Shown here: positions 10,140 to 52,002 of the stretch, one piece after another
Numbering within the stretch: the first letter of the stretch is position 1
Layout: each line of letters starts with the position of its first letter
Assembly: GCA_964530995.1 (NCBI GenBank)
Contig: CAZHCG010000001.1
Coordinates: 14,942 to 78,941 of the forward strand
Origin: an uncultured Myxococcales bacterium
GTDB lineage: Bacteria; Myxococcota_A; Polyangia; JAAYKL01
Direction: 5' to 3'
DNA length: 64,000 nt
Program-made: the position numbers and the translations under genes
The notes under the pieces: model-generated
What the model was told of the DNA's origin: nothing
Database searches by the model: none
Seen by the model: only the letters and a program-made list of their open reading frames with translations

Positions 10140-10418
10140 TTGAGGGAGTCACTCGGCGGGGCGCTCGCGGCGCATAGAAAGCGAGTCAAGTCCCATTCGA
10201 CGCTCACTGGCGTCATTGACTCGTCCGCCCTCAAGAAGCGCATTCTGAAGCCAAAGACCAGGACGAAGACCTACGGCGGAGAGCGACCTGAGCCCAAACG
10301 CGAGGTGAAGGTGGTGCGCCCGAAGTCAGACCGTGGAAAAAAGCTCAGTGCGTCTGAGAAACGACGTCGACGAAAACGCCGCAAAGCGGCCCAGAAATCA
10401 AAGAAGAGAAACCGATGA
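10140..10418 (+). CDS. small, highly basic K/R-rich protein, possibly nucleic-acid binding
   Basis: TTG start; its stop overlaps the next ATG (ATGA), which suggests translational coupling. Confidence 0.4.
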   Translation: MRESLGGALAAHRKRVKSHSTLTGVIDSSALKKRILKPKTRTKTYGGERPEPKREVKVVRPKSDRGKKLSASEKRRRRKRRKAAQKSKKRNR

Positions 10419-11188
10419 GAGTGCAGAAATGCGCTGAGACGGCGTTTGCTATCATCGACTGCGACTGCGACCCACAGCAGGACATGATTCAACGCCAGAT
10501 AAAGTTTCAAAAGCGCGTCGGAACCTGGGACGACTCCATCAAGGATTACGGCCCAAATCCGAAGTGTGATCCACGTAAGGTGGTGTGGATGCTCGACCTT
10601 GCCCTGCAGGAGGCCAGCGAAGCGTGGGACCTAGTCGAGGGCGGCTGGAAGGGCCACAAGCTCAACCCTGACCCGATGGACGACGGCGAGGTCCTCATGG
10701 AGCTCGTAGACGTGGCACACTACGTCTGGAACGCCTACGCCTTCGCCGGCGGGCAGCCACATCCGGACCTCGTCGCCGCCGCAGTGTGCGCATGCCGCCA
10801 GAACCTGCAGCTTCCCACGCTCAATATGTTCCTGGCGTGGCAGAAGGGCACCATGCTCTGGTCCGGTGGCAACAGCGAAGACATGGAGTTCAAGTACGGC
10901 TATCACGAATGGGCGCACGGTACGGATGCCGAGAAGGCGGTGGCCTCGCGCATCAACTGCCTGCGCGCTCAGATCGCCGGAGTGGCCGAGACTTACCGCT
11001 CTTCAATGGTCGGGTTCAGAGACCGCCTCGACAAGTACCCTGTCGCGCCTGGATTCGTGTTCGACGAGATCGTTCCTCACATGTATGCCGCTGCCGCCGC
11101 GATTCCAGGGTGTGACGAGCAGACCTTTTACTCCGCGTTCGTGCACAAGAACGACATCAACCACGGGAGGCAAGACGATGGGTACTGA
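10415..11188 (+). CDS. MazG-like all-alpha nucleoside triphosphate pyrophosphohydrolase (dUTPase/dCTPase family)
   Basis: EExxE-type helices LALQEASEAWDLVEGG and ELVDVAHYVWNAYAF. Confidence 0.65.
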   Translation: MRVQKCAETAFAIIDCDCDPQQDMIQRQIKFQKRVGTWDDSIKDYGPNPKCDPRKVVWMLDLALQEASEAWDLVEGGWKGHKLNPDPMDDGEVLMELVDVAHYVWNAYAFAGGQPHPDLVAAAVCACRQNLQLPTLNMFLAWQKGTMLWSGGNSEDMEFKYGYHEWAHGTDAEKAVASRINCLRAQIAGVAETYRSSMVGFRDRLDKYPVAPGFVFDEIVPHMYAAAAAIPGCDEQTFYSAFVHKNDINHGRQDDGY

Positions 11189-16724: not shown

Positions 16725-17105
16725 ATGGACGTCTGGAACGACCAGATCGTCATACAGGGGCTCACCGCGGCATACGGCACCGGAGTCCCTCTCGACACCA
16801 TGCCCATCTACGGCGACGTGCGCCGCATGTCCGTCACTCGCCTAGGCTCCAGCAGCGGCGACATCACTGTGGAGGTATCAGCCAATAAGGACTTCACCGA
16901 CATCCTGATGGAGGTCGAATTTCAGGGCATGAACGGCGCGGGGGCGTCCAACGTGTGGGGGTGCGGATACAAGCCGACCTTCAACGCGCCTAACGGCCTG
17001 TACGTGCGGGCCAAGGACACAGCAGACGCTGGTGACGACATCTCGGTGAAGATCTCCGGCGAGGCTGGCGAGGGTGCGGGTCAGTACAGGGGGATCGGCA
17101 AATGA
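16725..17105 (+). CDS. hypothetical protein
   Basis: Ribosome-binding site GGATAGGG; ATG. Confidence 0.5.
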   Translation: MDVWNDQIVIQGLTAAYGTGVPLDTMPIYGDVRRMSVTRLGSSSGDITVEVSANKDFTDILMEVEFQGMNGAGASNVWGCGYKPTFNAPNGLYVRAKDTADAGDDISVKISGEAGEGAGQYRGIGK

Positions 17106-17440
17106 GCACCGGCGACGTCGTAGTCCTCAAGCCGCCCCCGGGGTCCTGTCCCGGCGGAGGAGGCGCGCCGACTCCGATGGACCTCAGCGTGTTCCTGGAG
17201 ATCATGCTTCAGTGGACGAAGGGCACCCTGTCCAAGGAGTTCACGTACACCGGCCTAGACCTGACGCGCATCAGCTATTTCGACGTGGACGGCGGCACGG
17301 AGCTCTACCGCGTGGAGTTCAGCTACGACGGCAGCGGCTTCCTCGACACTGAGGTCGCAACCAGGCTGGCCGACTCCGCGGCTCAGACGAAGACCTACAC
17401 TCACGCCAGCGGTGTGGTGACGAAGGTGGTAGTCACGTGA
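17102..17440 (+). CDS. hypothetical protein
   Basis: ATGA overlap with the previous gene. Confidence 0.5.
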   Translation: MSTGDVVVLKPPPGSCPGGGGAPTPMDLSVFLEIMLQWTKGTLSKEFTYTGLDLTRISYFDVDGGTELYRVEFSYDGSGFLDTEVATRLADSAAQTKTYTHASGVVTKVVVT

Positions 17441-17946
17441 GGACGACGCCAGCCACCGACGGGAAGAAGCACGCGGGCTCCAACCCGCTGCCACACGACC
17501 ACCACAACCGACCGGAGTCGTTCTCGATCAGCAGCACCGGCACACAGAGCCTGCCGCCCGGTACCACGTACGACCTCGACATCGACCTCGGGCGCACGGG
17601 GTACACCTACGGCAGGGTGTACCTGGAGGGCCCACGCACGATGTCCGGATCAGGGGTGCTGTGGCAGGAGTGCGCCGAGGTGGTCGTCACTACGGACTCC
17701 GCGGACGCCAGGTCCCACAGCGTTAGGGACTCGAACTTCAAGAAGGTGTACGCCGGCCACTACTCGAAGCCGCAGGGCGACGCGTGGCTCAGCCACAAGA
17801 TCTTCGACTCCGCCACCGGACTGACACAAAGGTACATCGCCCTGCTGGACGCATGGATCACCGGCAGCACACTGCGGCTCAGGTTCCACAACTACTTTGG
17901 CGGCTCCGCGTTCCTGTGGGTCGAGGGGCAGGCGGTGATGCGATGA
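17437..17946 (+). CDS. member A of a tandem three-gene paralog family (HDHH motif)
   Basis: GTGA overlap start; N-terminal HDHHNRPESF; C-terminal LDAWITGSTLRLRFHNY. Confidence 0.55.
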   Translation: MRTTPATDGKKHAGSNPLPHDHHNRPESFSISSTGTQSLPPGTTYDLDIDLGRTGYTYGRVYLEGPRTMSGSGVLWQECAEVVVTTDSADARSHSVRDSNFKKVYAGHYSKPQGDAWLSHKIFDSATGLTQRYIALLDAWITGSTLRLRFHNYFGGSAFLWVEGQAVMR

Positions 17947-18431
17947 GGACGTCGGTCAAAAGGAACACGACGGACCACGCCGACATCCTGGTCCAGACGG
18001 AGCACGACCACCACCCACGCGGTCAGGAGTTTCGCATCATCATCAACTCGACGTCCATCGCGCCGGGCGCCTACGAGCACCGCACCGCGCTGGGAAGGTC
18101 GGGACATCAGACGTCCCGAGGCATTCTGCGCGGCTACAAGCAAATGTCGGTTCAAGGGCATAATGGCCTCTTCTTCGTCGGAGGGCCGAGCTCGGGACAG
18201 TGCTCCGGGATCGGCATGGAACCGTACGGAGGCGGCGGATACTACTCGGCGTACATGGGCGGGTACTCGCGCCTGCACGGCGACTCGTTCCTGAGCAGAT
18301 CGTGGATGTTCGGCCCGAGCATCTACCTCCGTGACGCGTACATCGATGACGATGAATTCGTCCTCGAGTTCTACAACCAGGCCGCCTCAAACAGGAATCT
18401 CAGCTGCTACGGATCGGTGGCAGTCAAGTGA
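17943..18431 (+). CDS. member B of the tandem paralog family
   Basis: ATGA overlap; HDHHPRGQEF…; C-terminal VLEFYNQAASNRNL. Confidence 0.55.
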   Translation: MRTSVKRNTTDHADILVQTEHDHHPRGQEFRIIINSTSIAPGAYEHRTALGRSGHQTSRGILRGYKQMSVQGHNGLFFVGGPSSGQCSGIGMEPYGGGGYYSAYMGGYSRLHGDSFLSRSWMFGPSIYLRDAYIDDDEFVLEFYNQAASNRNLSCYGSVAVK

Positions 18432-18949
18432 GGACCCAGAGCCACAGGATGCACCCGGGCGGCCACGCCGGTCTGGTCAACGTCAACGCGAACGACCACC
18501 ACGAGCAGCCCACATTCGTGGAGTTCAGCGACACCACGACTGTCATCGCCCCAATGCCATTCGGCCCAGGAACCATTGACATCATCCTGCCGTGGGCGGC
18601 TGACGTGGTGCTGTTCGACCTGCGCTCCGTCAGGACCGTGGGCGAAGGGTCGCTCAAGGCTGGGGTCACCGGCATCACCGGCAGGTCCCAGTACTTCGAC
18701 GCCACTTGCGCGTCCATCGGCGGCAGAGGGACTACAGCGGCTACTGCCTACGGAGCGATATATAGCAAGGCCGCCTCGGCGCTGAACCTATCCCACAAAG
18801 TGTTCTCCTCAAGCGGCGCGGACGTCAGCCTGACGGACGCCTGGATCACGACCAGCGGGCCAAACACCGTCCTCAGGCTCGAGTTCACGAACTACAGCGC
18901 CGGCAACCGGACCCTAAACGTGTGGGGGACCGTCGAGGTGTTGGGATGA
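18428..18949 (+). CDS. member C of the tandem paralog family
   Basis: NDHHEQPTF…; C-terminal LTDAWITTSGPNTVLRLEFTNYSAGNRTL. Confidence 0.55.
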   Translation: MRTQSHRMHPGGHAGLVNVNANDHHEQPTFVEFSDTTTVIAPMPFGPGTIDIILPWAADVVLFDLRSVRTVGEGSLKAGVTGITGRSQYFDATCASIGGRGTTAATAYGAIYSKAASALNLSHKVFSSSGADVSLTDAWITTSGPNTVLRLEFTNYSAGNRTLNVWGTVEVLG

Positions 18950-20202
18950 CGCTACGAGTGCTGGCCATCTGCCAGGAGGACCCCGAGCACATCCTCGGCG
19001 GGATGGGCCGGCACGTCGGCGAGCTGTACGCGACGATGGCGCGCAGGTCTGATGTGGAAGTGGACCTGCTGACATGCGGCGTGGGCGACGAGCCCACGAC
19101 CTGGCGCGGATTCACCAAGTGGCCCGGCGACAAGCTCGTGGCGTGGAAGCCGCGCAGTCCTGACATGTCGAGCCTACTGATGAGCGACATCCAGATGCTG
19201 CGCCAGCTCACGCAGATGCTGGCCGACGGGCGCCGCTGGGACGTCGTGCACGTCCACGAGTGGAACGCCCTCCAGGTCGCCAGGGCCGCCCGGGACGCGC
19301 TTCGAGTGCCTCTGGTCGGCACGATGCACCTCTGCATCACGTACCTCATGGAGGACGGCGGTGGAATCAGCGGCGAGATGAAGGATCAGGAGATGTACCT
19401 GATGCAGATGGAGGGCCACCTCGCCGTCGACACCGACGAGTTCATCATCTGCTCGGACGCCTACCGTCGGCTCACAAGCCGGCTGTTCATGACGGACCGC
19501 GACACCAACGTGATCTACAACGGCATCGATACGCAGAGGTGGAGCCCGGAGCTGGGGGACGCCAAGAGCGCTCTCAGACGGCACGGACTGCCGTGGGATC
19601 GACCCATCTGCCTGTTCGTCGGGCGCATCGCCGAGATGAAGGGCATCCGCACGATCATGGACGCCGTCGAGCGCGAGGACAACGGCTGGTTCTACGCCCT
19701 CGCCGGCGAGATCAACGCCAACACCAAGGCGGCCCGTGACTCGTGGGACGTCACCCAGCGGCTCGAGCGCATGAACGAGGAGCTCCCGGACCGATTCAAG
19801 TGGGTCGGATTCCAGCAGGGCCAAGCGCTCAAGGACCTGTACGCCGCGGCGACGGTCGGCCTGATGCCCAGCCACCACGAGCCGTTCGGCCTGGTCGCCC
19901 TCGAGCACATGGCGATGGGCGTGCCGCTCATCAGCACGGAAGTCGACGGCCTTGGCGAGGTGGTCATGGACGAGGCCGGCGTCGAGTACGCGATGATAGT
20001 GCCGCCGCGCAGCGTTGAAGACATCCTGGAGGCCCTGGAGATCCTCAGCGACCCGAAGCCGCGCGAGGAGCTCAGGCGGCTGGGCCTTCAGCGCGCCAGT
20101 CAGTTCGACTGGCACGAAATCGCGGCTCAGACGGTTGACGTTTACCGACGAGCCGTACTGAATCACAGCCGCCCGCAGGAGGCCGCATGTTCATCATACT
20201 GA
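18946..20202 (+). CDS. GT4-family (GT-B fold) glycosyltransferase
   Basis: N-terminal GGMGRHV; C-terminal signature HHEPFGLVALEHMAMGVPLIST. Confidence 0.85.
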   Translation: MTLRVLAICQEDPEHILGGMGRHVGELYATMARRSDVEVDLLTCGVGDEPTTWRGFTKWPGDKLVAWKPRSPDMSSLLMSDIQMLRQLTQMLADGRRWDVVHVHEWNALQVARAARDALRVPLVGTMHLCITYLMEDGGGISGEMKDQEMYLMQMEGHLAVDTDEFIICSDAYRRLTSRLFMTDRDTNVIYNGIDTQRWSPELGDAKSALRRHGLPWDRPICLFVGRIAEMKGIRTIMDAVEREDNGWFYALAGEINANTKAARDSWDVTQRLERMNEELPDRFKWVGFQQGQALKDLYAAATVGLMPSHHEPFGLVALEHMAMGVPLISTEVDGLGEVVMDEAGVEYAMIVPPRSVEDILEALEILSDPKPREELRRLGLQRASQFDWHEIAAQTVDVYRRAVLNHSRPQEAACSSY

Positions 20203-20681
20203 CCGAGCCCGTGCAGGTGCCGGACCTGAACCGCATCTCCATCGCCAACATCGAGATCGAGCACAACCCTCAGCGCGGGCGCGCGTGGGCCGAGATCTGG
20301 TGCGTGTGGGGCTACCTCGAGGAGCCGGGCAACCCCATGTCATTCGTCGAGTGCAAGCACCCCGTCACCGGTGAGGACGCGACCCTCTTCAAGATCGAGG
20401 ACGGCCACCACCCCATCGCCCACGACATGGCGCTGGGCAAGTGCCCCACCTGCGGGGCGTGGCATCAGCGGATCTCGAGCGTCTGCGGGGTGGACGGGTG
20501 CGATGGGGACGTGGCGCCCTACGACGGGTTCACCCGGGTCATGGCCGAGATGACCGCGGATGGGGAAGACGTCGGCACGGCGGTTCAGCGGATCGCGTAC
20601 ACCTTCCTCCTGACCGAGGTGATCCCCGATCATAACACGTGGGAGCTGCGCCCCCTGGTGGCGGGCACGCCGGAGGTGTAG
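20187..20681 (+). CDS. hypothetical Cys/His-containing protein
   Basis: Overlaps the previous stop; CKHP…CPTCGAWH…CGVDGC. Confidence 0.5.
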   Translation: MFIILTEPVQVPDLNRISIANIEIEHNPQRGRAWAEIWCVWGYLEEPGNPMSFVECKHPVTGEDATLFKIEDGHHPIAHDMALGKCPTCGAWHQRISSVCGVDGCDGDVAPYDGFTRVMAEMTADGEDVGTAVQRIAYTFLLTEVIPDHNTWELRPLVAGTPEV

Positions 20682-20685
20682 GGCG

Positions 20686-22041
20686 ATGAACGGCAGCAGC
20701 GTCAGAATCATAGACGGAGACACCGAGCGCATCGAGACGCAGGCGCTCGACGATGCAGAGGACCCGCTCACCGGGGTCACGGACCTGCTCATCTCCATCC
20801 GTCGGGTGAGCGACGACTTCTACTACGACTTCAACGACAACACATTCAAGTCCACTGGGTGGACCACCAGGCGTCAGGCTATGACGGAGCTCGACGCCAC
20901 CAACGACCCGGGCCTGTACTACTACGACTTCGACACCTCGGCCATCACCAACGAGGCGGCAGACGACACCTACATGGTGCGCGTCGAGCAGTCCCCCGGA
21001 ACCACCGTGGAGAACCTGCCGCAGAGCGGGGAGATCAAGGTCGACCAGTGGCCGAAGGATATTATCGACGACGTTGCCACCGTAGACGGTGTCGTCGACG
21101 ACATCCTGGTAGACACCAACGAGATGCAGAGCAAGCTGCCCACGAACAACATCATGGGGAGCAGCGACAAGGCGGACCATGACGGCGAGATCGGCGACAT
21201 CCTCACTGACACCGCGGCGATGCAGCCGCTGGTCAGCGCCAACCTGGACGACTCGATCAGCAACGTCAGAGCTGACATCGCGGCTCTCAACGACATCGAT
21301 CAGGCGGGCGTCCAGGCGGCCCTGACGGCCCAGGGGTACACCTCGGTCAGGGCCGGGCTCCTGGACAACCTCGACCAGGCCATCAGCTCCTTGAACGACC
21401 TGTCCATCGCAGACGTGCAGACCGCGCTGACGAACCAGGGGTACACGGCTCTTCGGGCGGCGGCCCTGGACAACCTAGACGCCGCAATCTCGACGGTCCT
21501 CGGGGCCATCGGCGCTCTCAACGACCTGAGCCAGGCCGACGTGCAGTCCGCCATGACCTCGCAGGGCTACACGACCATCAGGGCGGCCCTGCTGGACAAC
21601 CTGGACGCGGCCATCACGGCAATCCCGGCGGCGGTTGACGTCGTCCTGTCGGCGGCTCACGGCAGCGGGAGCTGGGAGGACGCCGGGGCGATGGCCGCCG
21701 ACGTCGTGATCGAGTACATCAACGGCAACTTCAAGGTCGGCGTGACGATGATCGAGCATGGGGAGGTTGTCACGGACTTCGACTCCGTGGCCGCCGAGAT
21801 CCATGAGGTCGATGGCGCCGCGACCCTAGTGGTGGACCTCGGCACGCAGAACAGCGACAACGCCGACGGCACCTTCATCTTCACCGACACCCCGACCCTG
21901 GACTACGGGGAGGTGTACGCACTCGTCATTGTGGCAACCCGTGGCCTCGACACCTGGAACCTCCACTTCGGGTTCCCGGCAGAGCGCCTGGCCGACCAGT
22001 TCCGTGTGACGAGGAACCTGGTGGTAGGCACGGGGGTGTAG
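20686..22041 (+). CDS. repeat-containing protein, probably structural, with three 35-aa tandem repeats
   Basis: Repeats LND(I/L)xxAxVQxA(L/M)TxQGYTxxRAxLLDNLDxAI(S/T), each occurring three times. Confidence 0.55.
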   Translation: MNGSSVRIIDGDTERIETQALDDAEDPLTGVTDLLISIRRVSDDFYYDFNDNTFKSTGWTTRRQAMTELDATNDPGLYYYDFDTSAITNEAADDTYMVRVEQSPGTTVENLPQSGEIKVDQWPKDIIDDVATVDGVVDDILVDTNEMQSKLPTNNIMGSSDKADHDGEIGDILTDTAAMQPLVSANLDDSISNVRADIAALNDIDQAGVQAALTAQGYTSVRAGLLDNLDQAISSLNDLSIADVQTALTNQGYTALRAAALDNLDAAISTVLGAIGALNDLSQADVQSAMTSQGYTTIRAALLDNLDAAITAIPAAVDVVLSAAHGSGSWEDAGAMAADVVIEYINGNFKVGVTMIEHGEVVTDFDSVAAEIHEVDGAATLVVDLGTQNSDNADGTFIFTDTPTLDYGEVYALVIVATRGLDTWNLHFGFPAERLADQFRVTRNLVVGTGV

Positions 22042-22042
22042 C

Positions 22043-22561
22043 GTGTACGTCGTCGGTTTCAGCAAGAAGATGACGTTCCTCGCCAGAGCGATCATGTGGT
22101 TCACGAAGAGCCACACGAGCCACACCTACGTCCGCCAGGGCGACACGGAGACCGGGTATGTCTTCGAGTCCGACGAGCGTGGGGCCAACAACCAGTGGGC
22201 CCCCGTGTTCTACCGCGAGGGCAGCGGCAACATCATCGTCGAGGAGTACCTCATCGAACTGCCGGACGAGCTACTCAACGACGGATGGGACGTTACACAG
22301 CGACAGCACCTGAATCAAAAGTACGGATACCTACAGCTCGTCGGAGACGCCATTTCCATCCTGGTCGAGTGGGCATTCAAGAAGAAGGTCAAGAATCCGT
22401 TCGGCAACGCCTATACCGTCGTGTGCAGTGAACTGGTGCTGGCATTCCTCGTAAACTCAGACATCCCTGGCTTCGCGGACATGGACCCAGAGCTCGTTAG
22501 CCCCGAAGATCTGTTGGAAGTGATTCACACCATGCCGGCCACGTTCCAACGGTTGACTTGA
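22043..22561 (+). CDS. hypothetical protein
   Basis: GTG start; lower-GC codon usage. Confidence 0.45.
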   Translation: MYVVGFSKKMTFLARAIMWFTKSHTSHTYVRQGDTETGYVFESDERGANNQWAPVFYREGSGNIIVEEYLIELPDELLNDGWDVTQRQHLNQKYGYLQLVGDAISILVEWAFKKKVKNPFGNAYTVVCSELVLAFLVNSDIPGFADMDPELVSPEDLLEVIHTMPATFQRLT

Positions 22562-22637: not shown

Positions 22638-24410
22638 ATGTCTGACGACAACCCGGTTGTGACACAGAATCCGAGCATCATCCTCGACAAAGAGGTGATC
22701 GACGTCCCGCTGATGATCGGCGAACTTCCTGGCACGCCGGCTCAGGATACCGATCCTGACGAGATGTTCGGCGGCGGCATGGCCAAGCAGCCCGTGCCTC
22801 CCAAGGAGGCGCTGCGCCTGATGCTTCGATGCGGCGCGCTGATGGCCGTCAGCCACGCCGTGGCTGAGGGGACCGCAGGCTCCGGCTACGACATCATTCC
22901 GCGCACGCGCGGCATTGACGTCGATCATCCGGATCGCTGGCCGGCCGACGTGAATGATCAGTTCCAACGAATCCAGGCGTTCATCCAGACGGCGTTCCAC
23001 GGCGAGCAGGACATGTCACTGCGCACCGGCTTCTACCGAGAGGAGCACGACAGGTTCTCAATCGGCTGGGGAGGCGTCATCGTCCACCGTGGCATCAAGG
23101 ACGCTAACAGCGACCTTCCGCCGCCACCCAAGGGGCTCGGACGGTTCGAGGCGTGCGGCGGGAAGTTCACCAAGCCGGACCGCAAGCCGACGATGGTGCC
23201 CGTGCCCGTGGGATTGGACGACGGCTCCATCGTCTGGGTGGAGGTGCCGCGCTTCTTCCGCCGCATCAGGTACCAGTCCAGCGGCGGCGCGATCATGTGG
23301 TTCAAGGAGTACGGCGACTGGCGCAGCATGGACGCCAAGACGGGAAAGTTCTCGTCCGGCGTCACGCACACCCCACCGACCAAGGAGTGGGCGCACGGTC
23401 GATACACCGGTGGGGCGCTGCCCAAGACCGCCGTTCCGGCAGTCGAGGTTGCCCACTGGGAGACGCCGTTTCCTGGCGTGTACCCGTACGGCGTCAGCGC
23501 GTGGCACGCGGAGATGACGGCCATCAGGTCGTCGCACGAGCACGCCAGCCTGATGCTGGACTACCTCAAGTCCGGATTGCACTCGGTGATCGTTGCCGCG
23601 GCCAACAGGTCATTCGAGTCCGGCACGGCCGACGCCGCCGTGAAGAAGATCGACGAGCTGGGGCGCGGGCGCGAGGGGCTCGGCGCCCTGGTCCTCATCG
23701 AGCTGCAGCCCATCGACAGCAAGCAGACCGGGTACAACTCCATGTTCGATCAGGACAGGACCGGCGACCGCGGGCGGCTGGTGCTGCACGAGCTCCACAC
23801 CAAGCTGCCGTCCGAGCTGATGAATAACACGTTCAGCGAGGCGCTGTCCACCAGGATCTCCAACGCAGAACGCATCCCCGGGTTGCTGCTCGGCCGCTCA
23901 GAGTCCTACAACTTCGCCACTGCTGCCGCGGCTTGGATGACGGCCAACCGCTTGCGGTTCAGGCCGCACCACATGACCCGCGAGTCATTCCTCGACGCGC
24001 TGCTTATCGAGATGGGCATCACGCACTGGCGGCTTGCCGTGCGTTCGCCCGAGTGGGACGAGCAGGAGAAGATCTCCAGCGTGGTCCAGTCCATCGGCCA
24101 GATGGGCGGTATCAGCGTGAATCGAGCGCTGCAGCTGCTCGGCCGCGCGGTCGGCATCGAGACTACTCCGATCACCGAGTGGTGGGGCGACATCCCACTC
24201 GTGCTAGTTACCAAGATCCTCGAGGCCGAAGACCCGCAGGCCATGCTCGACGCGCTCAAGCTGCCCGGCGAGCCTCAGATCCCGATGGACCGGTCCAGCG
24301 TGTCAGATCCGGTGTCCAAGGCCATCGACACTTTGAACGCTGCGGCGGAGGAGGCCGCGGGTTCGCGTTCGGGCGATGGGGCGCGACCCCCTGAGGGTGG
24401 CACCGAGTAG
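22638..24410 (+). CDS. large hypothetical protein, possibly a portal or morphogenesis protein
   Basis: GGACGGAGG ribosome-binding site; roughly 590 aa; no definitive motif. Confidence 0.5.
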   Translation: MSDDNPVVTQNPSIILDKEVIDVPLMIGELPGTPAQDTDPDEMFGGGMAKQPVPPKEALRLMLRCGALMAVSHAVAEGTAGSGYDIIPRTRGIDVDHPDRWPADVNDQFQRIQAFIQTAFHGEQDMSLRTGFYREEHDRFSIGWGGVIVHRGIKDANSDLPPPPKGLGRFEACGGKFTKPDRKPTMVPVPVGLDDGSIVWVEVPRFFRRIRYQSSGGAIMWFKEYGDWRSMDAKTGKFSSGVTHTPPTKEWAHGRYTGGALPKTAVPAVEVAHWETPFPGVYPYGVSAWHAEMTAIRSSHEHASLMLDYLKSGLHSVIVAAANRSFESGTADAAVKKIDELGRGREGLGALVLIELQPIDSKQTGYNSMFDQDRTGDRGRLVLHELHTKLPSELMNNTFSEALSTRISNAERIPGLLLGRSESYNFATAAAAWMTANRLRFRPHHMTRESFLDALLIEMGITHWRLAVRSPEWDEQEKISSVVQSIGQMGGISVNRALQLLGRAVGIETTPITEWWGDIPLVLVTKILEAEDPQAMLDALKLPGEPQIPMDRSSVSDPVSKAIDTLNAAAEEAAGSRSGDGARPPEGGTE

Positions 24411-24417
24411 CACAGCT

Positions 24418-24426
24418 TGATATACT
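24418..24426 (+). promoter_or_regulatory. extended -10 promoter element TGATATACT
   Basis: Motif family member; heads the methyltransferase - kinase - ThyA-like operon. Confidence 0.5.
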
Positions 24427-24469
24427 ACAGGTAGTTAAATACGGCAACCACCGCAGCCGTGGAGACGAG

Positions 24470-25387
24470 ATGGGATCACAGAAGATGATGGCATGCATCA
24501 GGACTGGGCGCGTCTTCGCCGCAGACCAGGTGCCGGACGACACCGACGGGCTGATGCTCATGCCCGTGGAGGAGGCCGAGCCGTACTACGAGCAGTGGAC
24601 TCGCTCGGCGGCCATTCCGCATGAGCGCACGGACGATGGAAGATTCGACCGCTCCCATCTGTCCACCGAGCACGCGTACCGACTCGGTCGCGATTACTTC
24701 GCGCACTGCCTGAGGTACGGGTGGCCGATGACGCTGGTGCGCCAGCACGTCGGCCCCGGCGGCCGCATCATGGACGTGGGATGCGGCAAGGAGATCCCGT
24801 TCTTCAGGGCCCTGACGTGCGACCACTCCGCCGTGACCTACTACAAGCCGGCGTTGTACGTCGCGGCTGACCTGAACGACATCAAGTACCGGCCTCGCAT
24901 CACCGGGTGCGAGACCCACATCCTCGACCACTGCAACGCCGTTGAGGACCTGAGTCGAGTCCCGAACGAGCCGTTCGACCTCGTGGTATCCTTCGAGGTG
25001 CTCGAGCACATGGACAAGGACGACGGCCTGAGGTTTCTCGAGGCGCTGGTGGGATTCGCTCGGCGCAAGCCTGAACGAGAAGGCAAGCCCGCGATCATCG
25101 CCCTGTCCACCCCGGTCAACGGCGGCACCATCGCCAAGAACCACATCTACGAGTGGGGCCGCTCCGAGCTGCGCCGCGCGTGGTGGAAGCTCGGCTGCGA
25201 CGTCGTGCAGGAGTACGGCACCTTCGCCAACCTGCGCGACATCACTCGAATGCTTACCAGCACCGAACTCGAGGTGTGGAACTCACTCGTGGACTACCAC
25301 AGCCCGCACACCCTGACGAGCATCTTCGCCACCAAGCATCCCGAAGCCGCCAGGAACATCGCCTGGCACGTCGAGGTGAGGCCGTGA
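24470..25387 (+). CDS. class I SAM-dependent methyltransferase
   Basis: Motif I RIMDVGCGKE; post-I FDLVVSFEVLEHM. Confidence 0.8.
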   Translation: MGSQKMMACIRTGRVFAADQVPDDTDGLMLMPVEEAEPYYEQWTRSAAIPHERTDDGRFDRSHLSTEHAYRLGRDYFAHCLRYGWPMTLVRQHVGPGGRIMDVGCGKEIPFFRALTCDHSAVTYYKPALYVAADLNDIKYRPRITGCETHILDHCNAVEDLSRVPNEPFDLVVSFEVLEHMDKDDGLRFLEALVGFARRKPEREGKPAIIALSTPVNGGTIAKNHIYEWGRSELRRAWWKLGCDVVQEYGTFANLRDITRMLTSTELEVWNSLVDYHSPHTLTSIFATKHPEAARNIAWHVEVRP

Positions 25388-26262
25388 TCATAGTGCTCGA
25401 GGGCGCAGATGGCGTGGGAAAGACCACCCTCGCCGACGCCATCGAGTCTCTGAATCCCGGCAACACGGTGAGATTCAACCATGGCCCGCCTCCAGACGGC
25501 GAGTCCGCGGCGATGCACTACGAGGAGTCCATACGCGACCTCGTCAGAGCCTCTGACGCTGGAACGGTAGTCGTGTGCGACAGGCTACACGTGGGTGAGC
25601 TGGTGTATGGCGCGGTGGTGCGAGACGATCCAGGCATCACCGTAGGCGAGGCATGCGTGTTCGACCTGACGCTGGAAGGCGCCGGCGCCTTGTTAGTTCA
25701 TTGCTCCGTGCCCAAGGCCGTCGCATTTCAGCGCATGATCGGTCGTGACGGCGGCAAGCCCGACGAGAAGAGCGGCGCGAAGACGTCTCACTGGCGCGCG
25801 TTGGCCGCCGGCTTTCGGCGCTACACCGGCGGAGTACTCACCGGGCACTGGCGCGACGCAGACCTGACGGGATACCCCCTTCAGGCCGCCACTGAACTGT
25901 CCATCGAGGCGCGCATGCGCCATCGGTTCGGGCCACCGGTCCCGAAGTTCCAGCTGGCTCTGCCCGACCCAGAGCCAGGCATCAGCAACACGTCGTGGAT
26001 CTGCCACCAGATGCGAATTCTTGGACTGCACCGTCAGTTCGAGTTTGCGACACCTGGCCACGTTAGAAACAATGTCCCAATCATCGCGTTGGGTGACGCC
26101 AGCGCGTGGCTGGACGTCGCTGCCATCGCCTACGAACGCCGAGTCCCCCACCGCGAAGACGAAGAGGACTATGACGAAGAGTCGGCGTGGCGCAGTGAGG
26201 TCTTTGACGCCGTGAAATGCGTGAAACGAGAGATGGGCCATGAAGAAAGGTGCACCAGATGA
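25384..26262 (+). CDS. P-loop nucleotide or nucleoside-monophosphate kinase
   Basis: GTGA overlap start; P-loop VLEGADGVGKTTLA. Confidence 0.65.
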   Translation: MIIVLEGADGVGKTTLADAIESLNPGNTVRFNHGPPPDGESAAMHYEESIRDLVRASDAGTVVVCDRLHVGELVYGAVVRDDPGITVGEACVFDLTLEGAGALLVHCSVPKAVAFQRMIGRDGGKPDEKSGAKTSHWRALAAGFRRYTGGVLTGHWRDADLTGYPLQAATELSIEARMRHRFGPPVPKFQLALPDPEPGISNTSWICHQMRILGLHRQFEFATPGHVRNNVPIIALGDASAWLDVAAIAYERRVPHREDEEDYDEESAWRSEVFDAVKCVKREMGHEERCTR

Positions 26263-26540
26263 AGTTCGATCTCAGCGTGATCGAGGAGATGCACGAGGCG
26301 CATCAGGCGACGTTCAAGCGCCTGTGCGACAAGGCGGAGCTGGAGGTCAAGAAGACCTCGGTGACCTTCTCGGAGGAGCAGATCAAGAAGGCGTCGGAGG
26401 ACCCGGGGTTCGCCAAGGGGTTCCCGATGTTCGCGGCGGCCTACGGGAAGGCCTCCAAGAGCTCGAAGAAGCCCGACAAGAAGTCCTCCAGCGACAAGTC
26501 CGTCAAGAAGGACAAGACCGAGGACAAGCCGCAGGACTAG
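26259..26540 (+). CDS. hypothetical K-rich small protein
   Basis: GAAAGG ribosome-binding site, then ATG; C-terminal KKPDKKSSSDKSVKKDK. Confidence 0.4.
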   Translation: MKFDLSVIEEMHEAHQATFKRLCDKAELEVKKTSVTFSEEQIKKASEDPGFAKGFPMFAAAYGKASKSSKKPDKKSSSDKSVKKDKTEDKPQD

Positions 26541-26626
26541 TCGGCGAGTTCGCCACAGGCGACGACCTCTGCAGGGCCGCACTGCGGTTCTGCCTAGCAC
26601 AGGAGTCTGAGGCCGCCCCGAGAGGC

Positions 26627-27559
26627 ATGGCGGTCAAGGAGTCGCTGCTCCCATCCGTCATGGTCCTGAAGGACGTGCACAGGCCGTTCTTCCTGTCACC
26701 GACGCGCAAGGCCAACTACCGATTCGGCCTGGCAGAGGCCTGCTGGATTCTCAGCGGCTCCGACGACGCCCAGCTCATCGGCAAGTTCAACAAGAACATG
26801 CTGAAGTTCAGCGACGACGGCAAGACGCTGTGGGGCGCCTACGGCCCGAGGCTCATGGGTCAAATGCCCCACGTCCTGAACAGCCTCAGGCGGGACGGGC
26901 ACAGCAGGCAGGCGGTGAGCTGCCCGTGGAGACCGCAGGTTGGGCCACTCGAGCTGTATGGCATGGACATCGACTGGCGTGGAGACCACAGAGACAGTCT
27001 CGGACTCACACTCGACCCCAACAATCAAAATGCCGAGTGGGACGGCGACTCCTGGCGCTCGAAGGACATCCCGTGCACGATCTTCATGCACTTCCAGATG
27101 CGCGATGGTAAGCTGTGCATGACGGCGTACATGAGGTCCAACGACGCGTACCTCGGCGTGCCGTACGACATCCTATCGTTCACCACCGTGCAGCGGGCCA
27201 TCGCGTCCGCCCTCGGCGCGGAGCCCGGGTGGTACTGCCACGTGGCGAGCAACCTGCACCTATACGAGCGCAACTTCGAGGACGCGGAGCGCGCCCTGAA
27301 AGACACCAGCGGCGTGGACAATCAGGTCGAACTTCCGCCCATGGGACGGGCGCTTTACGGAACGCTAGCGCCGCAGATCTCTCGTGTCTTCGAAGACATC
27401 TTCGATGAGACCCTGGGCGCGTGTGAGCACCACGTCGACTGGATCAAGCCATTCGTCGCAGCCATGCACCGCCGTCCTGACGTGTGGGACGGATGGCCGA
27501 GGCTGCTGCGTGCGACAGGGCGAAAGCCCCGCGTGGTGGCTACGAGCACAATCACGTGA
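26627..27559 (+). CDS. thymidylate-synthase-family pyrimidine C5 hydroxymethylase/methylase with Asn-to-Asp substitution at the ThyA Asn177 position, which in ThyA-family enzymes determines substrate pyrimidine (dCMP-type)
   Basis: GAGAGG ribosome-binding site; SRQAVSCPWRP; catalytic IPCTIFMHFQ; RSNDAYLGVPYDILSF aligns with ThyA RSCDVFLGLPFNIASY, placing D where ThyA has N. Confidence 0.75.
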   Translation: MAVKESLLPSVMVLKDVHRPFFLSPTRKANYRFGLAEACWILSGSDDAQLIGKFNKNMLKFSDDGKTLWGAYGPRLMGQMPHVLNSLRRDGHSRQAVSCPWRPQVGPLELYGMDIDWRGDHRDSLGLTLDPNNQNAEWDGDSWRSKDIPCTIFMHFQMRDGKLCMTAYMRSNDAYLGVPYDILSFTTVQRAIASALGAEPGWYCHVASNLHLYERNFEDAERALKDTSGVDNQVELPPMGRALYGTLAPQISRVFEDIFDETLGACEHHVDWIKPFVAAMHRRPDVWDGWPRLLRATGRKPRVVATSTIT

Positions 27560-27586
27560 TAGGATGTAGGTGATCTTGGGAGAGGC

Positions 27587-29941
27587 ATGCACGAGACCTA
27601 TCGCATATGTTGGACGCTCGAGCAGTGGACGGAGGCTCTGAAAGAGGCGGCGGAGAGCCCACGCGTCGGGCTTGACTTCGAGACCTGCCCAGACCCTCGA
27701 CGAGAGACCACCACCGAACCTACGCGCCCTGAGGACGGCGCGAAGGTGGCTGGCACCGCGTTGGCGTGGCTCGCTGAAGATGGCGTCACCATCAAGTCAG
27801 CGTACGCCCCGTGCCGGCATCACCGGCTGTATGCCGGCGGGATGCAAATGCGTCCGAGAGAGGTCTTTGGGCCGCTCTCTGACTTCATGCGCAACCGCCC
27901 AGCCGATCAGCTCGTCGTAGTTCACAATCTGTCATTCGAGCTTGGGTTCTTGCTGGCGGAGGGGGTGCTGTGGCCCAAGCGCGGGCAGCTCCACGATACC
28001 ATGATTGCCGCGCGCGTCCTGAACAAGGGCGTTGGATTCCGCGAGCTCATCGGCCTCAAGGGGCTTCAGGCCGAGTACCTCAATCGGGATATGACGTCCA
28101 AGAACGACATGGACACGTGGCTGAAGGCGCACAACTTCAAGCCCGGACGCGACATCTGGAAGGCACCGCCAGCCATCGCCGGCGTATACGCGCAGGATGA
28201 TGCCAGAGACACGCTCGCCATCTGGCTGATGTGGGAGGAGTACGTATACCAGGAGCCGACACAGTGGTGGTGGCACAGGGGTCCGGACCGCCGGTTCCGA
28301 CACGACTTGTACGAGCTCGAGATCGAGGCGGCGATCAACGCCATCATAAACTGCCTGCGCGGCACCAGGTACGACAAAGCGCTGTGCGCCCGACAGGCAC
28401 TCGCCGCCGAGACCCTTCAAGAGGTATCGCGCCGTTGGGTTCGCAACTACCTCGAGATGCCCACCATCAACCCTGGCAGCGGACCGCAGGTGCGTGGCAT
28501 CATATTCTCAGAAGCATTCGGCGTGCAACCGTCGCTCGAGCACATGACCGACAGCTTCAACAAGCTGCCTGATCGAGAGCAGGTCAAGACCATCGAAGGC
28601 CTCGGCAAGAAGACCCTGAAAGACTACGCCTCGCTGGACATCGACGCGTTGGGATTCTACGCCGAACAGGTCCCAGAGCATGAGAGCCTGTTCTTCATGC
28701 TGGCCGTATACCGCAAGTGTCAGACGGCCATCAACTGGTTCAACGACAGGGTGCTGCAGTTCGGCACGCCAGTGGCCGCAGACCCGTGGTGGGACGGCAA
28801 CGGGTCAGCGTTGGCAGTCATCTTTCATCGCCTCTTGACGGTTGGCACAGTATCCGGGCGCATGTCATCCAGAGACTACAACGGCCAGCAGGTGCCGAAG
28901 CGGTTCAAGATGCTCTTAAACGCCAACAAGCTGCACGCCATTCTGCGAGAGTACCTGCCAGAGAATCAGTTCGAAGAGCTCCTGGATATGTTCGAGTACG
29001 CCCCCGTAAATGAGGGCGACGAAGCCAAGGTCCTGGGGCTCGAGCCCGGCGAGCCGGTCATCGACTTTTCAGTGCGCCGCATGTTCATCACGAGGCCGGA
29101 CCACGTCATGCGGCTGTGGGACCTCTCTCAGGTGGAGATGCGCGGGTTTGCGCACTATTCAGGAAACGCCCTGCTGTGCAACGGGTACGGCAGCCCGCCC
29201 AGCGACGAGGAGATCACAGACGAACTGTCCATGATCTACGAGGTAGTCGACGGGCGAGACCCTCACATGGCGTTGGCTCAAGCGTACCTCATGCGCCATG
29301 CGGACCTGGAGGCCAACCCGTTTGACATCCATGCTTTCGTCTCAGACGAACTGGACATCAACCGAAAGAAGGGCAAGGGCATCAACTTCGGCATCGTGTA
29401 TGGCATGGGCAAGCGGAAGCTCGCACGACAGCTCGGGTGGACCATCGTGGAGGGGCGCGAGTATCTGGCGAGGTACTACGCCAAGTTCCCCGAAATTCAG
29501 ACGATTCAAATGCACATCAAGCAGCGCCTACGCGAGCGTGGATACGTGTTCGATCCGTTCGGGCGCCGGTACTTCCTGCCAATGAACCGGTCGTACGTAG
29601 GATTGAACCGCCTCATTCAGGGATGGGCCGCCACCGTCATGAAGGTCGGATTCGTACGCATCAGCGAGCTGTTCGCAAGCCCGGCACTCGGCGGAGGCTC
29701 AGTGCACCCGGTCATGGGACGTCGCACCCCGGATGAGTGCCGCGGGCTTAAGATCGTTCACGATGAGATCATCGCTGAGGTGCTGCACAAGCACAACACT
29801 CAGAACCTTGACTTCATGGTCCGAAGCTGCATGACGCTCATGCACGGGCTAAACGTGCCGCTAGGCACATCGTCCGAAATGTCCGATAGGTCATGGGACG
29901 AAGCAATCAAGTACGAAGTAAAGACAGGGAGAGCGGCGTAA
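27587..29941 (+). CDS. PolA-family (DNA polymerase I-like) polymerase with 3'-5' exonuclease domain
   Basis: Exo I LDFETC; motif A DLSQVEMRGFA; motif B RKKGKGINFGIVYGMG; motif C VHDEII. Confidence 0.9.
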   Translation: MHETYRICWTLEQWTEALKEAAESPRVGLDFETCPDPRRETTTEPTRPEDGAKVAGTALAWLAEDGVTIKSAYAPCRHHRLYAGGMQMRPREVFGPLSDFMRNRPADQLVVVHNLSFELGFLLAEGVLWPKRGQLHDTMIAARVLNKGVGFRELIGLKGLQAEYLNRDMTSKNDMDTWLKAHNFKPGRDIWKAPPAIAGVYAQDDARDTLAIWLMWEEYVYQEPTQWWWHRGPDRRFRHDLYELEIEAAINAIINCLRGTRYDKALCARQALAAETLQEVSRRWVRNYLEMPTINPGSGPQVRGIIFSEAFGVQPSLEHMTDSFNKLPDREQVKTIEGLGKKTLKDYASLDIDALGFYAEQVPEHESLFFMLAVYRKCQTAINWFNDRVLQFGTPVAADPWWDGNGSALAVIFHRLLTVGTVSGRMSSRDYNGQQVPKRFKMLLNANKLHAILREYLPENQFEELLDMFEYAPVNEGDEAKVLGLEPGEPVIDFSVRRMFITRPDHVMRLWDLSQVEMRGFAHYSGNALLCNGYGSPPSDEEITDELSMIYEVVDGRDPHMALAQAYLMRHADLEANPFDIHAFVSDELDINRKKGKGINFGIVYGMGKRKLARQLGWTIVEGREYLARYYAKFPEIQTIQMHIKQRLRERGYVFDPFGRRYFLPMNRSYVGLNRLIQGWAATVMKVGFVRISELFASPALGGGSVHPVMGRRTPDECRGLKIVHDEIIAEVLHKHNTQNLDFMVRSCMTLMHGLNVPLGTSSEMSDRSWDEAIKYEVKTGRAA

Positions 29942-30702: not shown

Positions 30703-31154
30703 GGCTTGTTGTCCTCGGAATCGGCGAGTGGGCGGCACGGGCTCATCCCGGACTGGTGACTGACCGCGACCTAGAGCGGGTGCGTGAGTCCAACAATGTG
30801 CTGTTGGCCACCGCGCGTCGCCTGTTGGTGATCGCTCAACGCGCTGGAATGCCAAAGTCCGAGGTCGAATCGTTGATCAGTTCGGCGAAGCCGTCGCCAG
30901 CGGTAGGCCTGATGCAGGCCAAGGGCCAGCAGGACGATGGCTCGAAGGTCACGGGACGATTCTCGCAGATGGAGGCGATAGCCGCCGTGGACGCGGCCCT
31001 GGCGCACCCCAGGACGGCTCAGAGAGTGCCCGCGTGGTTCAAGCACGACTGGTGGCCCGGCGTCCTGAGGCGCGTGGCGTCCGGCGAGTGCATGTCCGAT
31101 CGTGAGGTGGACGTCGCGGTTTACGTGGCCGCGGATGCGACGGAGGAGAGATGA
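30672..31154 (+). CDS. hypothetical protein
   Basis: ATG at 30672 overlaps the previous gene by 31 nt; its stop overlaps the next ATG. Confidence 0.45.
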   Translation: MASGQDIPDLRLVVLGIGEWAARAHPGLVTDRDLERVRESNNVLLATARRLLVIAQRAGMPKSEVESLISSAKPSPAVGLMQAKGQQDDGSKVTGRFSQMEAIAAVDAALAHPRTAQRVPAWFKHDWWPGVLRRVASGECMSDREVDVAVYVAADATEER

Positions 31155-31627
31155 GGCCCAATTGGCCCGAGTACTTCATGTGGCTTGCCGTTGTGGCAGC
31201 CACTCGCTCTACATGCAGCCGGCTCAAGGTTGGGTGCGTGATCGTCGACCGAGAGGGGTACGTCAAGTCCACCGGGTACAACGGCAGCGCTCCCGGAGCG
31301 TCGCATGACCCGCTTCTGCACGACGGGCGCAACGTCAGGACCATACACGCTGAGGCCAACGCTGTGGCGCACGCGCACTGTGACCTGAGGGGAAGCACGG
31401 CGTACGTCACGACGTTCCCTTGCCGAGAGTGCATCAAGCTGCTCGGCGCAGCCGGAGTCAAGAGCATCGTCTGGCTAGAGGCCTACGCGTCGGAGGACAA
31501 CACGATCACCGCCAAGCTGGCCATGGACGCCGGCGTCAGCATGAAGAAGTTCGAAGGGAGAGAGCCGTGGAGCGAGGACGTCTCATCGTGGTTGAAGGCA
31601 TCGACGGAAGCGGAAAGAGCACGCTGA
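31151..31627 (+). CDS. dCMP deaminase
   Basis: Zinc motifs HAEANAV and PCRECIKLL; GGAGGAGAG ribosome-binding site. Confidence 0.85.
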   Translation: MRPNWPEYFMWLAVVAATRSTCSRLKVGCVIVDREGYVKSTGYNGSAPGASHDPLLHDGRNVRTIHAEANAVAHAHCDLRGSTAYVTTFPCRECIKLLGAAGVKSIVWLEAYASEDNTITAKLAMDAGVSMKKFEGREPWSEDVSSWLKASTEAERAR

Positions 31628-32190
31628 GCAAGTCGTTAGCCCGAGCCATCGGCGCTACGTGCGTTCGTGAGCCCGGGGACACGGAGTTCGGTGAGAACAT
31701 CCGCGAAGGGGTCCTCATGAAGATGTCAGCCGAGGCTCGTCCCGGCGCCGCTGCCATGACGATGCTGTACGCAGCCGCTCGTGCGGAGCTGTTCCAGACC
31801 GTCGTTGGCCCGGAGCTCGACGCCGGACGCGACGTCGTGTCCGACCGGTCGTACATCAGCAGCCTGGCGTACAATGCCGACGAAAGCTGGAGCCGAGATG
31901 ACGTCATGAACATCAACGCCAAGCTCATGACTCGATTCAACTGCTGGCCTGACGTCATACTCATCATGGACCTGAACGAGCGCGTGGCCATGGACCGTAT
32001 CACGATGGAACGATCTGTGGGTGCGTACGAGGCCGACGGGCTGGAGGCGTTCCGCCGGCGACGCGAGTTCTACTACCTGACGGCGAGGCACTACGCCGGG
32101 ATGGACTCGCACGTCCATGTCGTCGACGCCACGCGCCCCAAGGACGAGGTCCTGGCAAACGTCGTGGGCCTGATTACATCTGGCAGATGA
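31567..32190 (+). CDS. tmk: thymidylate kinase
   Basis: GTG after GAAGGGAGAG; P-loop IVVEGIDGSGKST; DRSYISSLAY; lid region. Confidence 0.8.
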   Translation: MERGRLIVVEGIDGSGKSTLSKSLARAIGATCVREPGDTEFGENIREGVLMKMSAEARPGAAAMTMLYAAARAELFQTVVGPELDAGRDVVSDRSYISSLAYNADESWSRDDVMNINAKLMTRFNCWPDVILIMDLNERVAMDRITMERSVGAYEADGLEAFRRRREFYYLTARHYAGMDSHVHVVDATRPKDEVLANVVGLITSGR

Positions 32191-34678: not shown

Positions 34679-34693
34679 GACTGGTGATTGACT

Positions 34694-51996: not shown

Positions 51997-52002
51997 GTAA
52001 AC

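Follow-up and report, generated by a model that had tools for sequence, protein, structure and literature searches.

Which base would be made by a group of viral genes in which a thymidylate synthase (TS) homolog with an aspartate in place of a canonical asparagine lies among a methyltransferase, a nucleotide kinase and a DNA polymerase, and would that base replace an ordinary one in the DNA that carries the genes? The question is raised by positions 24,418 to 27,559 of a 64,000-nucleotide stretch of contig CAZHCG010000001.1 (assembly GCA_964530995.1), the whole of which we refer to as the window. The window is part of an uncultured phage of about 100 kb, and identical genes are found in four Logan assemblies (runs SRR7048218-24), on contigs reaching 100 kb. 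Judged by the sequences of the predicted enzymes, this phage probably, although far from certainly, replaces deoxycytidine before replication in the T-even manner, by way of 5-hydroxymethyl-dCMP (5hm-dCMP). An initial annotation of the same DNA had proposed a T-even-like toolkit for exchanging cytosine for either 5-hydroxymethylcytosine (5hmC) or 5-methylcytosine (5mC). The core of that proposal, a dCMP-derived replacement suggested by the aspartate together with genes for a kinase, a pyrophosphatase, a deaminase, Tmk and PolA, stands, while its 5mC option is very unlikely, the active-site signature favouring 5hmC. T-even-like cytosine replacement is itself known, and its novelty had been overstated.

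The protein on which the answer turns is the following.

26540 to 27559 (annotated start ATG 26627), + strand: ThyA-family protein, predicted dCMP hydroxymethylase (5hm-dCMP synthase); PF00303 at 7e-20.

It keeps the PC nucleophile and the RSND...LGVP core, as first described, and the catalytic residues of the ThyA fold (Cys146, Glu58, Arg166, Asp169, His207 and Tyr209) are all present. The aspartate reported at the position of Asn177 is borne out by HMMER alignments with solved structures, in which PYDILSF stands opposite PFNIASY of the thymidylate synthases and lines up with VSDVFSF of MilA. In BLASTP the same segment meets FRNDYAW of T4 gp42, with which MAFFT alignments concur, and Asp177 is found in 120 of 120 homologs, these being the best of 1846 with E<=1e-5. 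Six diagnostic positions, numbered after E. coli ThyA as 143/146/147/167/169/177, read D-C-T-S-D-D in the window protein and, in an alignment of record-derived sequences, identically in T4 gp42. The corresponding signatures are E-C-T-S-N-D in RB69 gp48 (a 5-hydroxy-dCMP synthase), D-C-N-S-D-N in the dUMP hydroxymethylases SPO1-like gp29 and M6 gp58, N-C-P-S-D-D in AXL1 gp63 (a probable dCMP methylase with an adjoining dihydrofolate reductase, DHFR, gene) and L-C-H-S-D-N in ThyA. All six residues, together with Arg126, are invariant among the 120 homologs. The E. coli ThyA numbering in the MAFFT and 120-homolog comparisons was cross-checked against solved thymidylate synthases and the record-derived T4, RB69, SPO1-like and M6 sequences.

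In viromes, positions 177 and 147 divide cytosine-modifying from uracil enzymes, and TS homologs of the Asp type are the Pfam family most strongly tied to modified cytosine (PMC8670742). An ordinary ThyA, converting dUMP to dTMP, was considered and rejected, Asn177, His147 and Leu143 being replaced by Asp, Thr and Asp. The window protein falls below the NCBIfam ThyA equivalog cut-offs (best model 61 versus 327 bits; TIGR03284 55.8 versus 108), as does T4 gp42, and its closest solved relative is the hydroxymethylase MilA (4e-26), with thymidylate synthases at about 1e-13. MilA, the CMP 5-hydroxymethylase of mildiomycin biosynthesis, likewise has Asp at the equivalents of 143 and 177; it differs in the ribonucleotide determinants Ala176 and Lys133 (PMC5175136), which are Ser and Arg in the window protein and all its homologs. 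In that scheme Ser167 and Arg126' denote deoxyribonucleotide substrates, and Ala and Lys ribonucleotide ones (PMC5175136). Both deoxyribose determinants, Ser167 (MRSND) and Arg126' (HSRQ), are kept in 120/120 homologs, and a CMP hydroxymethylase of the MilA or BcmA type was rejected on the presence of Ser and Arg instead of Ala176 and Lys133'.

Whether the product is hydroxymethylated or methylated is a finer distinction. The change of Asn177 to Asp by itself turns a thymidylate synthase into a dCMP methylase, according to work cited in PMC8670742, and AXL1 gp63 is a phage example of such enzymes. The TS homolog might thus be a source of 5-methyl-dCMP in a phage of the XP-12 type, with 5mC instead of C in its DNA. 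Yet position 143 holds Asp and not a water-excluding hydrophobic residue, and an acidic residue here (T4 Asp145) activates the water that forms the hydroxymethyl group, such that T4 D145N abolishes hydroxymethylation (PMC6400193); the position is interpreted likewise in PMC13326640. This acidic residue, at -3 of the catalytic Cys in the motif KDIPCT, is Asp in 120/120 homologs. Moreover, the AXL1 enzyme has Asn143 and its DHFR gene alongside, whereas no DHFR was found among the window open reading frames (ORFs) scanned, and the C-terminal tail that seals the active site of thymidylate synthases is exchanged for an unrelated extension. Because Asp143, Thr147 and Asp169 are kept and no DHFR was found, 5hmC is favoured over 5mC, and we regard the methylase as very unlikely.

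Still less probable, to the point of being hardly credible, is a flavin-dependent 5-hydroxy-dCMP synthase such as those of RB69, DLP3 and RL38J1, with a glycosyltransferase of family GT4 acting on 5-hydroxycytosine. The clusters of these phages, which make glycosylated 5-hydroxycytosine, do resemble the window in their make-up, combining a MilA-like TS homolog, a YorR/Tmk-like kinase, an MshA/BshA-like GT4 enzyme and a dCTPase (PMC13326640). However, no genes for NDP-sugar synthesis were detected in the window, and the mark of their synthases, Asp169 changed to Asn, is present in all those tested, with RB69 gp48 confirmed (PMC13326640), whereas the window protein and its 120 homologs retain Asp169. 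Overall, 5mC, 5-hydroxycytosine, dTMP and hydroxymethyl-CMP are each disfavoured by a tested residue, and we take 5hm-dCMP as the predicted product.

The route by which such a nucleotide could reach the DNA can be sketched from five further genes.

10415 to 11188, + strand: all-alpha NTP pyrophosphohydrolase (MazG/dUTPase_2-like), candidate dCTPase; PHROG 173 at 2.8e-11.
25384 to 26262, + strand: Tmk-like nucleotide kinase, candidate 5hm-dCMP kinase; PHROG 761 'thymidylate kinase' at 4e-16.
27587 to 29941, + strand: family A DNA polymerase with 3'-5' exonuclease domain (PolA); Pfam DNA_pol_A at 2e-33, DNA_pol_A_exo1 at 4e-7.
31151 to 31627, + strand: dCMP deaminase; Pfam dCMP_cyt_deam_1 at 3e-23, with HAE and PCxxC motifs in the translation.
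31567 to 32190, + strand: canonical dTMP kinase (Tmk); TIGR00041 at 121.5 bits versus a cut-off of 83.25, Pfam Thymidylate_kin at 5e-28.

The pyrophosphatase would take dCTP back to dCMP, from which the TS homolog, as its active-site signature predicts, would make 5hm-dCMP with methylene-tetrahydrofolate, the exocyclic methylene intermediate taking up water instead of undergoing hydride transfer. The Tmk-like kinase, to judge from its position beside the TS homolog gene and from characterised clusters that are arranged alike, would then yield the diphosphate, and nucleoside diphosphate kinase of the host the triphosphate, to be incorporated by the adjoining PolA, while the deaminase and the canonical Tmk would supply the dTTP branch and drain dCMP. 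Pfam bears out the deaminase, Tmk and the neighbouring polymerase gene, all three named in the initial annotation, and the MazG-like pyrophosphatase that it placed at 10415-11188 is upheld by the PHROG match to NTP pyrophosphohydrolases and a weak, partial one to dUTPase_2 in Pfam (2.7e-6). A search of PDB sequences returned no match for the pyrophosphatase, which occupies the same position in relatives of this phage (viral contigs L012, L013, L074 and L075).

The kinase had been put forward as a candidate modified-dNMP kinase, and this is indeed the best reading, given the Tmk/YorR fold, the homology to RB69 gp45 and the presence of a separate true Tmk. Pfam recognises a weak Thymidylate_kin N-terminus, and the AlphaFold2 (AF2) model, with a pLDDT of 92.8, is matched by Foldseek to Tmk of Mycobacterium tuberculosis and to YorR (3kb2) with TM 0.81; the score against TIGR00041, 23.9 versus 83.25 bits, lies below the NCBIfam dTMP-kinase cut-off. 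Homologs include AXL3 gp29 (6e-7) and RB69 gp45 (hhalign 94%), the latter listed in PMC13326640 as the "nucleotide kinase" among the RB69 genes for cytosine modification, where its structural neighbours are the same. The C-terminal domain (25930-26262, residues ~185-292) is a degenerate relative of a fold like that of family 4 of the uracil-DNA glycosylases (UDG), which is intact, with VGE/LLVGD and HPQ motifs, in AXL3 gp29 and distant homologs.

This second domain allows another view, in which the protein would be a DNA nucleobase kinase, analogous to 5-HMUDK, acting on 5hmC in DNA, the UDG-like domain flipping the base and phosphorylation priming a substitution. The relation of the domain to UDG family 4 in AXL3 gp29 and the distant homologs is in keeping with this, as is a lid motif, R-x-GGKP, common to the window kinase and M6 gp54 (BLASTP 0.004; hhalign 91%, over 38 columns). 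We would nevertheless give this view little weight, since the window kinase matches only the Tmk family PHROG 761 whereas M6 gp54 matches phrog_800 (5-HMUDK) at 2e-39, since the P-loop EGxDGxGKTT and the DR-x-H-x-GE-x-x-Y motifs are Tmk-like, since the UDG-like domain is degenerate here and missing from several family members of ~180 residues, and since no aGPT-Pplase-like transferase was detected.

Following replication by the pathway through 5hm-dCMP, the 5-hydroxymethyl group would probably be decorated, and for this step two speculative candidates can be named.

18922 to 20202, + strand: GT4 (GT-B fold) glycosyltransferase, candidate DNA glycosyltransferase for the 5-hydroxymethyl group; Glycos_transf_1 at 4e-25, GT4-conflict at 3e-13.
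24470 to 25387, + strand: class-I S-adenosylmethionine (SAM) methyltransferase with an O-methyltransferase-like active site; Pfam Methyltransf_23 at 7e-8.

For the glycosyltransferase, the best NCBIfam matches are glgA_Coryne, MshA and BshA, and its gene lies within a 6-kb insertion missing from the relatives. RB69 and DLP3 have proven DNA arabinosyltransferases with the same structural neighbours, these too being MshA/BshA-like (PMC13326640, Table 1), and GT-B enzymes are often linked with TS homologs in viromes (bioRxiv 10.1101/2023.12.21.572611). The methyltransferase, as an O-methyltransferase-like enzyme, might act on the C5 substituent of cytosine in DNA.

That these genes belong together is suggested by their recurrence. 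A compact module of methyltransferase, pyrophosphatase, kinase, TS homolog and deaminase is present in unrelated phages, namely a Manatee Spring podovirus, Stenotrophomonas phage AXL3 and Pseudoxanthomonas phage PW916, with homology to the window at 1e-24 for the methyltransferases and at 2e-7 and 6e-7 for the kinases. The methyltransferase is encoded at 60 loci in IMG/VR. A TS homolog lies no more than 6 kb away in 36 of them, with Asp177 in 36/36 and Asp at -3 of the Cys in at least 28; among these 36 loci the pyrophosphatase is encoded in 30, the deaminase in 24 and the kinase in 22. The remark that the combination was not one known to the first annotator is fair as a personal statement, yet with AXL3, PW916, the Manatee Spring podovirus and 36 IMG/VR loci the module is not rare.

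The AXL3 and PW916 genes (gp27-gp31) encode a methyltransferase, an NTP pyrophosphatase, a Tmk-like kinase with a UDG-like domain, a TS homolog with the signature D-C-T-S-D-D and a dCMP deaminase, as here. They differ in that these are unrelated siphoviruses of 47 kb, with protein identities of 28-35% and without a gene of the C5-methylase type described below, and in that their pyrophosphatase gene is adjacent, whereas in the window it is 13 kb off and belongs to another family. Of 37 restriction enzymes tried on AXL3 DNA, 35 failed, only two with A/T-only sites cutting it, and gp28 was annotated as an ordinary thymidylate synthase, the modification being left unexplained (PMC7504290). We found no identification of the modified base of AXL3 or PW916 in the literature. 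Should the proposed replacement be correct, the phage family of the window and the AXL3-like phages would carry fully substituted cytosine, which would affect the sequencing, cloning and restriction of their DNA, and also which host defences detect it.

The methyltransferase is the more useful lead. It travels with TS homologs of the Asp type or with C5-methylase-like domains and is carried by two cultured phages. Its AF2 model (pLDDT 85.7) gives generic results in structure searches, CmoM being the best structural match, and the PDB sequence matches are confined to HENMT1 and bacterial Hen1, at weak similarity. Enzymes of the Hen1 type have four metal ligands, three of them in an E-x-x-E-H segment and the fourth a His further along, within H-x-[FY]-E-W (PMC10781085). 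These align, at that weak similarity (E 0.004-0.013), with E176, E179, H180 and H225, all four invariant across the family. The O-methyltransferase UbiG, which has a motif similar to that of the Hen1-like ligands, is the only NCBIfam match (2e-4). A profile search of 1.84 billion representatives returned at least 206 clusters (50% identity) at E<=1e-30. The family is essentially restricted to viruses, with cellular genomes nearly devoid of it: one weak partial match, in a metagenome-assembled genome of Planctomycetia, came from 185,579 species scanned. To our knowledge no known pathway gives this family a role. The MetaGPA paper text names no methyltransferase or kinase Pfams.

Two kinds of partner accompany it. 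The 36 of 60 IMG/VR loci that have a TS homolog of the Asp type nearby (within 6 kb) mostly run from methyltransferase through pyrophosphatase, kinase and TS homolog to deaminase, and in INPHARED four of four phages with the methyltransferase have such a homolog. On the other hand, a C5-methylase-like gene is directly adjacent in 10 of the 60, and in other loci the methyltransferase stands immediately upstream of the large terminase gene, with no TS homolog within 6 kb. Of the 148 top representatives that were new in the profile search, 37 are long fusion proteins; a PF00145 (C5-cytosine methylase) domain is present in 9 of 10 long relatives tested, and at least 25 of the 37 contain a C5-methylase-like domain with NPPC/HPPC as motif IV. 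The fusions occur in either order (proteins P0201-P0305), and in three an intein bearing a LAGLIDADG endonuclease is present as well. A viral contig of low GC (L038:5650-7908) has a ThyX-like (Thy1) protein next after the methyltransferase, with no ThyA-family homolog in that place.

The domains of these fusions are of the same subfamily as a pair of genes of the window.

11178 to 12410, + strand: C5-cytosine-methylase-like M1; PF00145 at 1e-13, start provisional.
12479 to 14329, + strand: M1 paralog M2; PF00145 at 2e-17.

M1 has NPPC as motif IV, ELV instead of ENV as motif VI and, in motif X, an Arg at the position of Asn304 of M.HhaI; it keeps the catalytic Cys, the Glu of motif VI and the arginines of motif VIII, and is conserved across the phage family. 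Its family profile matches M.HaeIII (2e-24) and CmoX (8yf3, 2e-18). In M2 the catalytic Cys is lost (NPPY), the Asn304 position is Lys and there is a long acidic C-terminal extension. The window carries these two paralogs where relatives have a single copy of the M1 type. INPHARED phages yielded no C5-methylase of the M1 type (0/4 of those with the methyltransferase, at E<=1e-8), and the AXL3, PW916 and Manatee phages have the methyltransferase without such a gene. M1, itself homologous to C5-methylases, recalls CmoX in its xPPC motif and in the Arg at the Asn304 position, an Arg that in CmoX binds the carboxyl of carboxy-SAM (Cx-SAM) (PMC12783734), and the companion methyltransferase recalls the CmoA/CmoX/CmoY system in having CmoM as its best structural match. 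The differences are that M1 has NPPC and not SPPC, that its similarity to CmoX does not exceed that to M.HaeIII, and that neither CmoA nor CmoY was detected in the window, whose sole class-I methyltransferase has no NCBIfam CmoA match.

The fusions, the adjoining C5-methylase-like genes and the terminase neighbours could mean that the methyltransferase is unrelated to the ThyA homolog and serves a separate DNA modification or anti-restriction function, with M1/M2 or alone, its position beside the kinase gene reflecting no more than the clustering of replication modules. This is a possibility of some substance, although the less likely one in view of the 36 loci with TS homologs of the Asp type and the four INPHARED phages, which lack M1-like genes. 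Since both partners functionalise C5 of cytosine, the two associations can be one story, and because chemistry at this atom is common to both partner types, the methyltransferase is placed at the level of DNA, where it probably acts on the C5 substituent of modified cytosine, as far as sequence comparison can indicate. The initial annotation had counted it as a member of the nucleotide module: the class-I assignment stands and so does the linkage to TS homologs of the Asp type, but with C5-methylase fusions and terminase neighbours a role in the nucleotide pathway is not obvious.

More tentatively, with the balance clearly against it, the methyltransferase may, together with the TS homolog of the Asp type, convert 5hmC into a base so far undescribed in nature, for example 5-methoxymethylcytosine, and its fused forms may, just as tentatively, methylate the group installed by C5-methylase-like domains of the NPPC type. 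No report of methoxymethylcytosine in phages was found in the literature. If this were true, a widespread viral module would make a new hypermodified cytosine, with the restriction resistance of AXL3 as a phenotype.

Several observations weigh against complete replacement through 5hm-dCMP. M1 is conserved in the family with its catalytic Cys, and such an enzyme would serve no purpose in DNA whose C5 positions all bore a substituent. The pyrophosphatase of the window is not detectably similar to that of AXL3, its substrate is a proposal, and the methyltransferase also adjoins terminase genes where no TS homolog is near. The Ser/Thr two residues ahead of the catalytic Tyr, which belongs to the proposed T4 hydroxymethylase signature (Ser94-x-Tyr96 in T4), has no counterpart here, the window protein and all 120 homologs having Gly-Ala-Tyr, while MilA has Thr. 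Finally, the conserved N-terminus of the TS homolog, including the phosphate-binding Arg, has no canonical start, so that the protein could be poorly expressed, impaired in its activity or translated in an unusual way.

This last point merits closer consideration. The 29 codons 5' of ATG 26627 encode the conserved N-terminal helix A and the phosphate-binding Arg (APRG): EFATGDDLCRAALRFCLAQESEAAPRG. Very probably, therefore, ATG 26627 is not the true N-terminus, and conserved coding begins from about 26540. No ATG, GTG or TTG exists in this frame between 26324 and 26627, and the start-less sequence is identical across the four assemblies. Immediately upstream is another gene.

26259 to 26540, + strand: small conserved ORF, 93 amino acids with a Lys/Ser-rich tail; GC at third codon positions (GC3) 0.98, homologous ORFs in L012, L013 and L074.

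It matches no Pfam or PHROG family, and its stop always lies a few codons 5' of F-x-T-G-D, a conserved N-terminal motif of the TS homolog, whose frame differs from that of the small ORF, the latter being +1. The junction here is GAC TAG|TC, with GTC in place of the GTG expected to overlap the stop. L074 and L075 likewise have no proximal canonical start for the TS homolog, and the same holds for about ten further close homologs, judged by aberrant gene calls. As the 87 nt upstream show protein-level conservation and coding-like GC3, and the two relatives share the feature, we take it for conserved unusual initiation and not decay; the gene is likely to be initiated, or reinitiated, in an unusual manner. 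Alternatively, a frameshift may fuse the small ORF to the TS homolog, although inspection by eye of the last ~100 nt, made in place of a systematic scan, showed no slippery heptamer for a -1 frameshift.

Could cytosine then be unreplaced, or replaced only in part, with the TS homolog poorly expressed or inactive and site-specific methylation by C5-methylase-like enzymes as the main protection? The N-terminus without ATG, GTG or TTG in four independent assemblies speaks for this, as does M1, which retains the PPC of motif IV together with its other catalytic residues across the family. But the coding-like upstream 87 nt and the equally start-less L074 and L075, the fully intact active-site residues of the TS homolog, and the Arg of M1 at the SAM-contacting Asn304 of canonical enzymes all make it unlikely.

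The replacement through 5hm-dCMP is best compared with the T4 pathway (gp56 dCTPase, gp42, gp1 dNMP kinase, cd and glucosyltransferases), with which it has in common the logic of enzyme roles, the identical six diagnostic positions and a candidate glycosyltransferase. The differences are considerable: the TS homolog has only ~29% identity over 78 residues to gp42 and is closer to MilA, the equivalent of T4 Ser94 is Gly, the kinase is Tmk-like and not gp1-like, the polymerase is of family A, and the window adds the conserved methyltransferase and C5-methylase-like genes.

The central genes form a tightly packed + strand block of five, in the order methyltransferase, kinase, 93-residue ORF, ThyA-family gene and PolA, the start of the kinase gene overlapping the end of the methyltransferase gene by 4 nt, and a promoter-like site lies upstream.

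24397 to 24426, + strand: promoter-like site with extended -10 (GTGGCA-18 nt-TG-TATACT), 5' of the methyltransferase gene.

The initial annotation had the methyltransferase, kinase and ThyA-homolog genes transcribed together from this promoter. The site is present, but it is the one sigma-70-like match in 24300-27700 versus a chance expectation of 0.6 +/- 0.8, which is weak evidence, and for this reason a single operon co-transcribed from it is only plausible. The 93-residue ORF, M1 and M2, the GT4 glycosyltransferase, the lack of a start codon and the methyltransferase fusions had not been mentioned there. Its "high-GC actinobacterial" host is unproven, the close relatives having 49-63% GC and including a 108-kb marine contig.

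Among 50,697 phage records, Megablast with the locus as query found no close relative, and the best identity of PolA to any phage record is only ~24%; cluster look-ups supplied no protein names. L012, L013, L074 and L075 have in common the order pyrophosphatase, C5-methylase-like, PD-(D/E)XK, AAA, 590-residue protein, methyltransferase, kinase, small ORF, TS homolog, PolA and, further on, deaminase and Tmk; PolA is encoded directly 3' of the TS homolog in all relatives, and in them the gene for the 590-residue protein directly follows that for the AAA ATPase. At this point the window has the 6-kb insertion 16725-22561, which comprises five small ORFs without a Pfam match, the GT4 glycosyltransferase, ORFs of 164 and 172 residues, and a 451-residue protein with tandem repeats of ~30 residues (QADVQ...GYT..RAALLDNLDAAI).

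The phage has a large replication and nucleotide-metabolism complement. At 5966-8833 a protein of 955 residues joins a Toprim primase domain to an MCM-type P-loop helicase domain, and encoded within 51841-57314 are a BRCT-containing DNA ligase of the NAD-dependent type, a 5'-3' exonuclease and the barrel domain of a ribonucleotide reductase. Neither ThyX nor a canonical ThyA nor DHFR was detected within the 64 kb. A further protein, of 870 residues (34688-37300), has both a GHKL ATPase (HATPase_c) and a TOP6A/Spo11 Toprim domain, and this fused topoisomerase-VI-like enzyme is kept in all relatives.

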